A DNA stretch of 64,000 nucleotides from Eledone cirrhosa (taxonomy: Eukaryota), in NCBI GenBank assembly GCA_964016885.1, contig OZ024740.1, positions 102,362,001-102,426,000 on the forward strand. Reading direction: 5' to 3'. Both the position numbers and the translations under genes were made by a program. The notes beneath the pieces were generated by a model. That model searched no databases. It was not told where the DNA came from and saw nothing but the letters and a program-made list of their open reading frames with translations. This document shows, in pieces, positions 928-64,000 of this stretch. How positions within the stretch are numbered: the first letter of the stretch is position 1; each line of letters starts with the position of its first letter.

Positions 928-1100
928 TAGCTTACTACATCAAATATCCTTGTATGTGTATATATATATATATATATATATATATATATATATATATATA
1001 TAGTGGTAGAACACTGGAAGGTAATATCCATAGTGGTAAAGCACTCAGTCCATGGGACGAGTTAGGTAGAAGTGGTTGCACAACAGTTAGTTCACCATTC

Positions 1101-1138
1101 CGAGAACAATTGTTTCACCTTAGCGGATCTTCAGCTCA
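1101..1138 (-). ncRNA. Minimal type I hammerhead ribozyme motif (PLE type)
   Basis: Minus strand: tgag CTGAAGA tccgctaaggt GAA ACAATTGT T ctcg; stem I gag/ctc, palindromic stem III ACAATTGT, GUU triplet. Confidence 0.75.
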
Positions 1139-1528
1139 TAATCGACATGGTTATACAGAACAGGAAGAACAACCGTACGAACGAGCATGCACAGAAACGG
1201 TCAATTCACTCAGGCAATACTAAATTGCGTGTGAGAGGTCTAAGAGAGATAACTGCGAAAGTCCGAAAGTTTCTAGTTGATAAGAAAATTAGGATGTTGT
1301 TGTAATTCAATCTGGAGCTTTGTAGTTATGTAAGAGGTGTTTCCAGATTTGTGAACAACATGTGAAGAATTCATTTCTTGAGTTTAGGCAATCGCTATTA
1401 CGTAATCTCTTTAGAATATTTATTCGTTGATCAATACATAGTCCACACGATGGATTGCCCCTTGCATATGGCTTGGACTTAGTGATGGCTTTCCCTTGAA
1501 TGGAGTAGTCTATACTTGAGTCCTTGAG

Positions 1529-1678
1529 CCATACGCAAGGGGCAATCCGTCATGTGGCCTATGTATTGATCAACGAATAAATATTCTAAAGAGATTACGC
1601 AATAGCCATTGCCTAAACTCAAGAAATGAATTCTTCACACGTCCACACGTCTGGAAACACCTCTTACATAACTACAAA
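1529..1678 (+). pseudogene. C-terminal fragment of a PLE GIY-YIG endonuclease
   Basis: Translates PYARGNPSCGLCIDQRINILKRLRNSHCLNSRNEFFT...KHLLHNYK, matching the PY..CxLC..LNxRxE..K.LL.N pattern at the end of PLE ORFs as I recall it; mirrored on the minus strand of the left arm. Confidence 0.7.
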
Positions 1679-1855
1679 ACTCCAGATTGAATTACAACAT
1701 TCTAATTTTCTTATCAACTAGAAACTTTCGGACTTTCGTAGTTATCTCCCTTCCACCTCTCGCACGCAATTTAGTATTGCCTGAGTGAAGTGACTGTTTC
1801 TGCGCATGCGCATTCATATGGTTTTCCTTCTTGTTCCGTATAATCATGTCCATTA

Positions 1856-60327: not shown

Positions 60328-60552
60328 CCCATTTCTGACTACATTTATGAAATACACTCTATGTTAATTAATTAATGAAGAATTGTGAGGGATTTACTAA
60401 AATTATTATTTCATTACTAAGATAGTAACTTAATGTTAGGTTCTTATATAAAATTATGTTGAAAGATTTTAATTTCAATTGGAAACCTTTAAAATGGGTG
60501 GTTTTATTTCAGAGAACTTGAGCCAGTTTTGGCCGGGTTGGTAACTAAAGGG
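60328..60552. mobile_element. piggyBac-like MITE with TTAA TSD
   Basis: TTAA-CCC...GGG-TTAA; relatives at 27961, ~41340-41590 and ~52845-52995. Confidence 0.7.
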
Positions 60553-61360
60553 TTAAGAGTCACACTTTTAATAACTTCAACTATGGAATGAATTCAAATA
60601 CATATTTAATATAAAGAAACAATTCTATGAAAATCTATTAATTTATGCATAAAAAATCAGATGATATTTATAAAACATAAAATTTCCATGAGTTCCATTA
60701 TCTTATAATATAATATAATATTAGTAACTCATTTTATATAGTCATAGATGTTTAAACAAAATTTATATAGCTTTGTTTCAGATTTTTACCTGTATAATAT
60801 TTGCGATTAGAGTGATTTTGAGGCAAAGATTCTGTCATATATTTTTGAAAGAACATTCTATTAATTGTGTGTGAACCACAACTTAAAAAATATCAATAAA
60901 TAAAATGTTAGAGTTTTTTTTAATCTAAATTCAAAATTATATTAGAATTTAAATGAAACTTATGAGGAGTGTTGTTTATTATAACATGTTATGGCTTTCC
61001 TAGGAAAATAATAGGGTTTCATAAGTAACTGAATATATTAAATTTTAAAATGACCTGATAGTAAGGACGAGTATGAATGCTAGGTAAAGGTTGTTTTTTA
61101 TGAAAGAACATGCCAAAATTAATATGGTATATGTATTTGTGGTTGTTGGGATGATATACATGCCTTCTGATGAGGTCCCAAAATTGATTAAAGGTGTATA
61201 CCAGGGTTTTTTTTCTATTTACAGTGAAATTCATATTTTCTGGCATGTTTACATGCCAACATATTAGATATGTGTATATTTGCATACGCACTCTGTATTT
61301 ATATAGGTATAACTTTATCATATACTTTGGCTGCTGGTGCACTTCTCAATGTATATATAT

Positions 61361-61876
61361 ATCATCATCATCATCAACGTTTAACGTCCGTGTTCCACGC
61401 TTGCATGGGTTTGGACGGGGGTAGTCCCACTTGAGGCAAGAGTGATTGTCTTGCTCGCATAGGACTGTCTGGCAGGTTTTCTACAGTTGGATGCCCTTCC
61501 TAACACCAACCACATTTACAGTGTGGGTCTGGGAGGTTTTTACCGTGTTGCCTACACGGCCACATTACAGCGTGGACTGTGTGTTTTTTTGTCGTGACAC
61601 CTACACGATCTCATTTGTTTCGGCCCGGATGGCGCGGCACCAACATAACTTTACATAGGACGGGGTGGTGTGGATGGGGTGGGGGTGGTGGTGGTGGGAC
61701 GGGGTGTATTTTGTTAGAGATGCCTACTGGCAAGGCGGGTCTTCTCTGTTACTGAGTACCGCCAAAGGTCTCGGTCCAGTGACATTGTCTTGGAGAGGTG
61801 TAAGTGTGTGAGGTCGGAGTTTATCAGCTCGTCCCAGGTTTTTCTAGGTCTGCCGAGCTGATAAACTCCGACCTCA
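61361..61876 (-). mobile_element. RTE 3' fragment with a 23-bp fold-back at its 5' junction
   Basis: Reverse complement of the RTE ORF end and 3' UTR. Confidence 0.88.
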
Positions 61877-64000
61877 TACATATATAAACATATATATATA
61901 TATATATATATATATATATATATATATATATATATATACATATATATATATATACATACATGTATATATATATATATATATATATATATATATATAAATG
62001 CATATATATACATGTATGCATATATATAGATATATGCATATATATATATATATACATATTGGAGGAAACAATTGTAAGCAAATAAATGATTTAAACTGAA
62101 CTTTGATTCATGTAATTTCTCTATATATATATATATATGTATATATGCATATATATATATATATATACGTATATATGCATATATATATATATACATATAT
62201 ATATATACATACATGTATATATATATATATATATATATATAAATGCATATATATATATGTATGCATATATATAGATATATGCATATATATATATATACAT
62301 ATTGGAGGAAACAATTGTAAGCAAATAAATGATTTAAACTGAACTTTGATTCATGTAATTTCTATATATATATATGTATATATGCATATATATATATACG
62401 TATATATGCATATATATATATGTATATATGCATATATATATACGTATATATGCATATATATATATATATATGTATATATATATATATATATATATATACG
62501 TATATATATGCATATATATATATATATACGTATATATGCATATATATATATATACATACATATATATATATGCATATATATATATATGCATATATATATA
62601 TGCATATATATATATATGTATGTATATATATATATGTATATATGCATATATATATATATTATATAACGGAGGAGTTGTGGTAAGGAACCAGATGGACCAT
62701 AGCGCATCAGAGTACTCAATACTTAGGGTAGTAGAGTGGGTAATAGGAGAAAGTATGACCGTTGAAACGAGCTCTACCGTCGAACATGGTAAAAAGTTCC
62801 CAGTTCCACACTGTAAATGTGGTTGGTGTTAGGAAGGGCATCGAGCCGTAGAAAACCTGCCAGATAGTCCTATATGAGCGAGACACGGTCACCCGACCAA
62901 CCTTGCCTCAAGTGGGACAACTCCCATCTAACCCCATGCTAGCATGGAAGATGGACGTTAAACGAAGATGATGATGATGATGATATATATACATATATGT
63001 CCATATATATATATACGTATATATATATATATATATACATATATATACATATATATACATATATATGTACGTATATATATATATATATATATATATATAT
63101 ATATATATATATATATACGTATATATGTATATATATATGTATATATGCATATATATATATATACGTATATATGCATATATAAATATATATACGTATATAT
63201 ATATACAAGTATATATGCATATATATACATATATATATGCATATATATATATATATACACGTATATATGCATATATATATATACACGTATATATGCATAT
63301 ATATATATATATATATATATATATATATATATATATATATATACATGTATATATGCATATATATATATATATATATATATACACATCATCATCATCGTCA
63401 TTTAATGTCTATCTTCCACGCTAGCATGGGTTTAGACAGGAGTTGTCCCACGTGACGCAAGATTGGTTGTCTTGCTCATATAGGACTGTCTGGTGGGTTT
63501 TCTACGGCTGGATGCCCTTCCTAACACCAACCACATTTACAGTGTGGACTGGGAGATTTTTACCGTGTTACCTACACGGCCACATTACAGCGTGGACTGT
63601 GTGTTTTTTGCCGTGACACCTACACGACCTCATTTATTTAGGACTGGATGTTGTGGCACCTACATAACTTGTGTAGATGGGGGTGGGGGTAAGGGTAGTG
63701 GGGTGGGGCTGTATTTTTGGTTAGGAGGAGCCTACTGACTAGGTTTCGCTTTGTACTTAGGCAAGGCGGGTCTTCTGTATTACTGCGTAGCACCAACGAT
63801 TTTGTATGCATATATATATATATATATATATATATATATATATATATACATGCATATATATATATATATATATATATACATGTATATATGCATATATATA
63901 TATACACGTATATATGCATATATATATATATATGTATATATACACGTATATAAGCATATATTTATATATACACGTATATATGCACATAAATATATATACA
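61877..64000. repeat. Compound (TA)n/(TATG)n/(TACG)n microsatellite block with embedded RTE tails (62786-62982 +, 63386-63797 -)
   Basis: Direct inspection. Confidence 0.9.

Follow-up and report, generated by a model that had tools for sequence, protein, structure and literature searches.

Hammerhead-Bearing Fold-Backs in Introns of an Octopod KIRREL-like Gene: Probable By-Products of Penelope-like Element Insertion

Introduction

The window analyzed here is a stretch of 64,000 nucleotides (nt) from Eledone cirrhosa (assembly GCA_964016885.1, contig OZ024740.1, positions 102,362,001 to 102,426,000 of the forward strand); coordinates below are those of the window unless the contig is named. 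It lies in a KIRREL-like gene and contains seven loci that bear full or partial type I hammerhead ribozymes (HHRs) beside (TA)n tracts, four of them being fold-backs in which two inverted arms point outward with their 3′ ends. A preliminary description of this DNA suggested that such a fold-back locks the ribozyme in duplex RNA and so makes intronic insertions tolerable. In our assessment, it is likely that the seven loci are the 5′-truncated ends of several families of Penelope-like elements (PLEs) in intronic (TA)n, the fold-backs being a by-product of insertion and not a selected ribozyme muzzle. The families behind the four fold-backs are referred to as F1 (locus 1002–1927), F2 (30284–31295), F3 (46074–46528), and F4 (45727–45928).

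Fold-Back Anatomy and Insertion

Fold-back anatomy was read in the best-scoring genomic loci of three families after duplicates of one insertion had been removed (29 F1, 27 F2, and 25 F3 loci). Head-to-head junctions are present at 16, 18, and 12 of these loci, respectively, and wherever both outer ends are visible, one short end is paired with one long tail: in 11 of 11 cases in F1 (one outer end was read by eye), 18 of 18 in F2, and 12 of 12 in F3, that is, 41 of 41. Overlaps of 1–9 nt are seen at 12 of the 16 F1 junctions. The F1 arms decay independently, since differences from the family that are private to one arm (219) far exceed shared ones (20) over 3574 columns. The same family shows 5′ truncation, an inverted 5′-truncated partner, and a tail at one end. 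The long-tailed arm extends further 5′ in 7 of 11 F1 fold-backs and the short-ended arm in 4 of 11, which disfavors a simple snap-back. As for the target, 128 of 174 family-supported HHR copies in the first set of host-gene segments (set 1, defined below) have a microsatellite within 250 nt on the 3′ side, a TA tract in 117 cases, versus 23% of random positions.

A mechanism may be proposed in which a PLE protein, as published biochemistry indicates, would nick both strands of an AT-rich target, and each nick would prime reverse transcription from one of two internal starts, yielding a short end or a long tail. Two 5′-truncated complementary DNAs (cDNAs) would then be joined head to head into a fold-back, both the dual priming and this joining being steps that we infer. 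Read-through RNA is predicted to fold into a long duplex, which would sequester the sense HHR and serve as an ADAR substrate. For the host, this sequestration would presumably be of little consequence, because cleavage by most of these minimal HHRs would depend on a second HHR for dimer formation or on the element's protein. The 41 of 41 pairing of long and short ends sets a sharp constraint on in vitro models of PLE insertion.

The Seven Loci and Their Host Gene

The KIRREL-like host gene is on the plus strand and spans the whole window. The Octopus vulgaris kin of IRRE 1 protein gives 12 exon matches on the plus strand of the contig, from contig position 102333153 to 102502886, at 67–100% identity; within the window, protein-to-genome matches place exons at 25417–25572, 32555–32818, 34497–34820, 36228–36374, and 44106–44276 (all plus), and the stretch 34497–34796 is 99% identical to the Octopus protein. 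Because the exon matches bracket the window on the plus strand, every HHR locus is intronic, and exon mapping thus agrees with the intronic position proposed earlier.

The type I core was defined as C3/U3-U4-G5-A6-N7-G8/A8-A9, G12-A13-A14-A15.1, and U16.1-H17, with three stems and stem I open. Intact cores of this kind are found at 1134–1105 (minus), 30593–30511 (minus), 31158–31240 (plus), and 45796–45834 (plus), and all core letters are also present at 52265–52329 (plus), while the motifs at 1860 (plus), 9139 (minus), the 45769 arm (minus), 46074, 62058, and 62301 depart from the definition. A relaxed type I descriptor returned one full HHR in the window versus 0.03 per shuffle, namely, the minus-strand HHR of locus 1002–1927, and six 3′ halves versus 0.5; a stricter descriptor demanding 3 base pairs (bp) in stem III recovered no real HHR. 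No hammerhead family appears among the 150 of 189 Rfam matches listed for the window, which are microsatellite-driven miRNA matches and one tRNA-like short interspersed element (SINE) only, and such a scan is uninformative for minimal HHRs.

Inverted repeats were found by self-comparison of the window at 1067–1927 (87%), 30451–31299 (89%), and 46067–46449 (97%). In the first fold-back, the two F1 arms are 87% alike across 871 nt and overlap by 9 nt at the junction. The left arm (1003–1535, minus), assigned by its motifs to an endonuclease-bearing PLE of Hydra-clade type, comprises the 3′ end of an open reading frame (ORF), a pseudo-long terminal repeat (pLTR) with an intact HHR, and a long tail. 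This minimal type I HHR (1101–1138, minus; C3 at 1134, cut site at 1105) is antisense to the host gene and reads CUGAAGA, a U-U mismatch followed by a 2-bp stem II, GAAA, and a palindromic CAAUUG, with cleavage expected after UU. The right arm (1527–1927, plus) carries the short end, and its sense HHR (1856–1893) is broken by a U16.1 to A change at 1888. The F2 fold-back consists of a left arm (30285–30939, minus) with a long tail and a partial tandem (U3 at 30593, cut site at 30511) and a right arm (30940–31299, plus) with a short end, whose HHR (U3 at 31158, cut site at 31240) is sense to the host gene; both arms combine an intact U3-A8 core with a stem II of 62 nt and the palindromic stem III CUGUACAG.

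The short F4 fold-back (45727–45928, unstranded) is a palindrome of about 130 nt (45727–45857) with a tail; the core of its plus (sense) arm, 45796–45834, is intact, and that of the minus arm has C3 changed to U. The F3 fold-back (46074–46528, unstranded) is a 97% palindrome (46067–46449) with a tail. Both of its arms stop within the HHR; of the family motif, the 3′ half alone is left, and it lies at the hairpin center instead of at the outer ends. Among the fold-backs of the window, just two sense arms have an intact core. The remaining loci are not fold-backs. At 9012–9220 (minus), a solo 5′-truncated copy of another HHR family, with (TA)39 on its 5′ side, has an antisense HHR (9057–9143) broken by a U4 to C change. 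The solo 5′-truncated copy at 52250–52404 (plus), sense to the host gene, keeps all HHR core letters (52265–52329) and has no inverted partner, being an unmuzzled counter-example within the window itself. At 62058–62120 (plus), an HHR 3′ half (GAAA CAAUUG UA) and a 3′ end lack the 5′ half of the core; a direct duplicate at 62301–62363 (plus) lies inside a microsatellite array.

Much of the preliminary description is borne out by this locus-by-locus reading: there are seven HHR-family loci adjoining (TA)n, a full or partial type I motif at seven of seven, and four fold-backs with outward 3′ ends. A self-complementary stem III, also attributed to these loci, holds for five of the seven and fails at the rest, e.g., in F3, where stem III is a stable 8-bp hairpin and not a short palindrome. 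Older decayed fold-backs, 67–77% alike and without a recognized HHR, were observed at 531–927, 47972–48457, and 24806–24898.

Element Families

Genome searches, in which 40 candidates were scored each time, gave at first look about 2864 candidates for locus 1002, 1402 for 30284, 1463 for 46074, 5722 for 45727, and 1357 for 52262. In other copies, F1 extends 5′ into a 585-amino-acid (aa) frame with YRDD, a CxCX5C linker, and then VVY..YVG, an order that would suit a reverse transcriptase (RT) followed by a C-terminal GIY-YIG-type endonuclease, as in PLE proteins. DKT is present in the F1 copy L007 (91% identity to the F1 reference) and CSCRKPEAC (CxCX5C) in the copy L260. The frame has 308 homologs, the best 120 of which are 36–50% identical to it, with DKT in 98 and CxCX5-6C in 111 of the 120; a Pfam search of F1 frames gave no match. 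Together with insertion into (TA)n and the presence of an HHR, as in the Hydra clade, these marks suggest that F1 is an endonuclease-bearing PLE with Hydra-clade motifs, the clade call resting on motifs.

F2 and F3 are non-coding and tandemly repeated, with periods of about 582 and 478 nt, respectively, and longest sense frames of 89 and 80 aa; the F3 unit has the 8-bp stem III. Blastx of both against 121 PLE-type proteins gave no match, and their copies are young (96–99% identity). Judged from sequence, tandem units with one type I HHR each fit non-LTR retrozymes. The Penelope-like origin claimed for the loci is supported by the link of 1002 to its putative RT/endonuclease frame; 30284 and 46074 proved to be non-coding tandem units.

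In F4, junctions cluster 2–8 nt 5′ of the core, and longer F4 copies and F4-type parents, including relatives in dynein genes, carry TATAAATA 22 nt upstream of this hot spot, with a variable spacer. Since the junctions cluster and TATAAATA sits 22 nt before them, the F4 fold-back junction probably marks the 5′ end of the RNA. The start of the F4 transcript may lie at the 5′ strand of stem I.

Other families were seen in passing. A further abundant HHR family (the L250–L251 region, about 50 matches in the gene set) has a 5–6 bp stem III with a palindromic loop; most of its copies are truncated 12–22 nt before GAAA, and many form hairpins of about 120 nt. In a myosin gene at C3:169.27–169.30 Mb (L156–L157), six identical 310-nt HHR units in antisense and one inverted unit form a retrozyme-like tandem of very recent origin. 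Another PLE clade is represented by a near-complete element with RT and GIY-YIG Pfam matches and a GLKF motif, which lies in sense orientation in a myosin intron (L137:9423–L138:1747).

Orientation in Host Genes

The orientation bias of intact solo cores was the check run on the proposal that the fold-back makes intronic insertions tolerable. Oriented gene spans were taken from KIRREL protein matches and from Pfam myosin-head and dynein domains. Set 1 comprised 27 segments (1.124 Mb) and set 2 seven dynein segments (0.525 Mb), four of which are further parts of sampled genes; the pooled sample thus contains 34 segments and 1.65 Mb, gene sequence only. The test rule was fixed after set 1 had leaned antisense and before set 2 was gathered. 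At a score of at least 11, set 1 gave 85 descriptor matches versus about 1.3 per shuffle. The two sets together hold 296 HHR copies, with 177 intact cores; 135 copies are arms of fold-backs with outward 3′ ends and four of fold-backs with inward 3′ ends, and 157 are solo.

Of the solo intact HHRs in set 1, 23 are sense and 36 antisense (p = 0.12); the replicate, set 2, has 14:17 (p = 0.72), and pooling gives 37:53 (p = 0.11), with a sense fraction of 0.41 (95% confidence interval 0.31–0.52). Solo broken cores stand at 18:26, no different from intact ones (Fisher p = 1.0). The 37 solo intact sense copies are spread over 21 of the 34 segments, and stem III is short in 86 of the 90 solo intact HHRs. 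With its 8-bp stem III, the F3 ribozyme should be able to fold as a monomer; a full HHR is present at 21 of 25 F3 loci, and an inverted arm covers 2 of these 21 (read by eye, the loci being taken irrespective of gene context). Because solo intact sense copies occur in 21 of 34 segments and the F3 ribozyme is covered in 2 of 21 cases, an intronic HHR evidently persists without a fold-back. These copies, the replicate, the equal skew of broken cores, and F3 speak against the tolerance claim, to which the check itself lends no clear support. HHRs with a strong stem are too sparsely represented among the oriented copies, since at least two families, F3 and another, escaped the descriptor.

Both cores are intact in 31 of 67 fold-back pairs; only the sense core is broken in nine and only the antisense core in four (p = 0.27). 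Several fold-backs in dhcC9, dhcC2a, and the set 2 C9 segments have the same core-breaking change in both arms, which suggests mobilization from sources with a dead HHR or conversion between arms. A post hoc filter that drops single-copy families gives 30 antisense to 15 sense in set 1 (p = 0.036) and is not replicated in set 2 (16:13).

Several observations weigh against the view of the fold-backs as mere by-products of PLE insertion. Solo full-core copies are 35:58 sense to antisense in set 1 (p = 0.022) and 55:79 in the pooled sample (p = 0.047), while core-less copies lean the other way (14:6 in set 1, 16:7 pooled; pooled full-core versus core-less, Fisher p = 0.013); both skews come from set 1, set 2 having 20:21 and 2:1. 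In the same introns, tRNA-like SINEs (177:106) and RTE 3′ ends (141:119) are sense-biased, unlike the solo HHRs (Fisher p = 0.0004 and 0.04, respectively). This contrast could be due to HHR cleavage, to AATAAA/ATTAAA, or to a different insertion bias. The protein frame, moreover, is tied to F1 only. Xenopus retrozymes have been reported, in the part of that literature available, to be under-represented in introns. There may be a mild sense depletion of solo HHRs.

The tRNA-like SINE, of the type found at 13785–13972 of the window, leans to the sense strand in each set (106:66 and 71:40; p = 3 × 10⁻⁵ after pooling), and RTE ORF pieces in set 1 are sense-biased as well (49:22). The usual intronic bias of such repeats is antisense.

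Duplex Formation and Editing

The claim that a sense HHR is locked by the earlier-made antisense arm is supported by the predicted folding of the two long fold-backs, in which the sense HHR is base-paired to the antisense arm lying upstream of it, with a mean probability of 0.91 (1002) and 0.97 (30284). According to cofolding, HHR dimers would have a stability advantage of 5.2 and 16.2 kcal/mol over two monomers.

It was also supposed that editing might partly unlock cleavage, which appears unlikely. The HHR core requires five or six adenosines. With 50% random editing simulated and inosine treated as non-pairing, 59–73% of the HHR is still paired, and about 3% of the cores (five core adenosines) remain unedited. 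Because editing sufficient to open the duplex would destroy the core, cleavage unlocked by editing would be self-defeating in this model. In a comparison of locus 1003–1925 with contigs, into which the whole family was drawn, A>G and T>C together account for 24 of 70 listed changes where the kind of source is not on record and for 24 of 59 in the DNA-like ones, figures from which nothing about editing or expression can be concluded.

Tight hairpins were defined by arms of at least 40 nt, at least 88% alike, with a loop below 300 nt. There are 95 of them in the 1.65 Mb: 34 overlap HHR fold-backs, 12 SINE/RTE pairs, one a microsatellite, and 48 are others, about 20 of which resemble HHR or PLE ends by eye. 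HHR fold-backs supply at least a third of the tight pre-mRNA hairpins in the sampled genes.

Multiplied by a genome size of 3.0 Gb, 70 descriptor matches per Mb give about 200,000 motifs, a rough figure derived from gene sequence only. It may be, and here our confidence is somewhat less than even, that PLE insertions are the main hairpin factory of octopus pre-mRNA, with some 200,000 HHR motifs per genome, about 30% of the insertions self-paired, and a large share of the hyper-editing substrate; mild selective loss of sense ribozymes that lack a paired arm may contribute to the bias. HHR fold-backs offer a testable source for the unexplained excess of double-stranded RNA (dsRNA) and for the hyper-editing in octopus. 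In the available text of Porath et al. (2017, PMC5625713), the lizard Penelope is massively edited, octopus is exceptional both in hyper-editing and in dsRNA potential, and octopus is left out of the repeat annotation, the source of its dsRNA not being assigned. Young repeats are the main editing targets in the accessible part of Zhang et al.

Alternative Explanations

Self-muzzling under selection would mean that insertion makes the fold-backs, but solo sense HHRs are purged for cutting the pre-mRNA, so intronic fold-backs survive preferentially. Although the predicted duplex locking, the pooled sense fraction of 0.41, the full-core skew of set 1, and the opposite bias of SINEs and RTE elements are in its favor, the replicate is flat for both intact and full-core solo copies, broken cores are equally skewed, 37 intact sense copies are unmuzzled (one in the window at 52265), and 2 of the 21 HHRs with a strong stem III are covered; besides, cleavage within an intron need not block splicing. 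We consider this explanation unlikely. Sense depletion, if real, might also be due to poly(A)-like signals or to promoters that the pLTR carries, which a fold-back would hide as well. AATAAA or ATTAAA is indeed present within 45 nt 3′ of 47 of 115 HHR seeds, and intact and broken cores are skewed alike, but core-less solo copies keep the 3′ end and yet lean to sense, and the flat replicate speaks against any such depletion, leaving this explanation little probability.

It is likewise improbable that the fold-backs arise by snap-back of a single cDNA, or that F4 and other short palindromes are multiplied whole, in the manner of miniature inverted-repeat transposable elements (MITEs). The clustering of F4 junctions within a few bases and seven locus-unique variants shared by both arms in F1 would suit such an origin, but a short-ended arm that reaches further 5′, as in 4 of 11 F1 fold-backs, is impossible to template from one cDNA, and snap-back was rejected on these arm lengths as the sole mechanism. 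The F4 and F3 palindromes were also rejected as MITEs: an asymmetric tail lies outside the inverted repeat, the centers vary, and solo and long-armed copies exist, while in F4 the varying junctions and the position of TATAAATA in the parents suggest run-off at an RNA 5′ end. As to regulated cleavage through ADAR editing of the sequestered ribozyme, octopus is among the strongest hyper-editors and the lizard Penelope is heavily edited, but in the simulation, once random editing has freed half of the HHR, less than 3% of the cores are still unedited, and this scenario is most improbable. Insertion of 5′-truncated PLE ends from two nicks remains the explanation that we prefer.

Other Features of the Window

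Copies of RTE-type long interspersed elements (LINEs) with RT and PHD-finger matches, ending in (GAT)n, occupy 2487–4950, 6609–9012, 21412–24818, and 62783–63800, and two RTE 3′ ends are opposed across a TA array at 62783–63569. A short perfect hairpin at the 5′-truncated end of an RTE copy (61783–61880) resembles a local inversion in segment L078. Another LINE has left a 3′ fragment of 218 aa, weakly matching zf-RVT, at 54208–54864 (minus).

Comparison with Known Systems

Truncated copies in inverted orientation, tails at one end only, insertion into (TA)n, U3-A8 cores, and HHR pairs on opposite strands have all been published before, and the loci are octopod members of known PLE and retrozyme kinds, their arrangement being largely ordinary PLE biology. 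In the literature searched, no paper deals with cephalopod HHRs or with the sequestration of PLE HHRs by an antisense arm, though such work may exist in subscription papers, in Repbase, or in supplements outside that search. What stands out is abundance: HHR density in octopod gene sequence is 70–107 per Mb, intact cores range from 0 to 338 per Mb between segments, and there are at least 36 HHR sequence clusters with several core and stem variants. Such a density would place the octopod among the richest natural HHR collections.

According to the available text of Craig et al. (2021, bioRxiv 10.1101/2021.04.23.441226 = PMC8557442), an inverted 5′-truncated copy beside the 5′ end, with a one-sided tail, is typical of endonuclease-positive PLEs, and the Hydra clade is marked by DKT, a CxCX5C linker, an HHR, and (TA)n targets. 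The octopod elements share with those PLEs this inverted copy and one-sided tail, partial tandems, (TA)n targets, a pLTR HHR, DKT with CxCX5C, and hosts among Mollusca. They differ in tails of 70–170 nt versus 30–40 nt and in the strict pairing of long and short ends that was counted here, and cephalopods are named in that text for Naiad remnants only.

In the available parts of Cervera and de la Peña (2014, PMC4209133), opposite-strand HHR pairs 100–700 bp apart, U3-A8 cores, and a single minimal HHR without cleavage are reported, and the accessible part of the review by Weinberg et al. agrees on minimal HHRs. The octopod HHRs resemble the PLE HHRs described there in being of type I, with a palindromic stem III, U3-A8, and an extra base before stem II, and in occurring mostly as single motifs from truncated PLEs. 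Inverted PLE ends and minimal, dimer-dependent type I HHRs, taken as established in the preliminary description, thus agree with what these two sources (PMC8557442, PMC4209133) contain in the parts available. By differing methods, 70 descriptor matches or 107 intact cores per Mb in the octopod stand against about 9000 per genome given for Xenopus tropicalis in the same text (PMC4209133), whose available parts mention no cephalopod.

For PAc Poseidon of Anolis (Frangieh et al. 2024, PMC11167929), the available text describes a protein that cuts and extends both strands, with two internal starts defining the tail, and an HHR that is inactive without the protein. The octopod elements are similar in the two apparent internal RT starts, the AT-rich target, and an HHR near the 3′ end; they belong to a different clade, their HHRs are known from sequence alone, and inverted insertions are not reconstituted in that text. 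F2 and F3 are like the non-LTR retrozymes of Cervera and de la Peña (2020, PMC7229834) and Li et al. (2026, bioRxiv 10.64898/2026.07.22.740005), insofar as these sources were available, in being non-coding with one type I HHR per unit, and, by analogy with them, are likely mobilized by PLE proteins. Unlike these retrozymes, they have units of 582 (F2) and 478 (F3) nt, larger than the published sizes of about 300–390 nt, and occur mostly as partial tandems and fold-backs. Finally, as with the palindromic editing substrates in the accessible text of Porath et al. (PMC5625713), the octopod tight hairpins come from single insertions.

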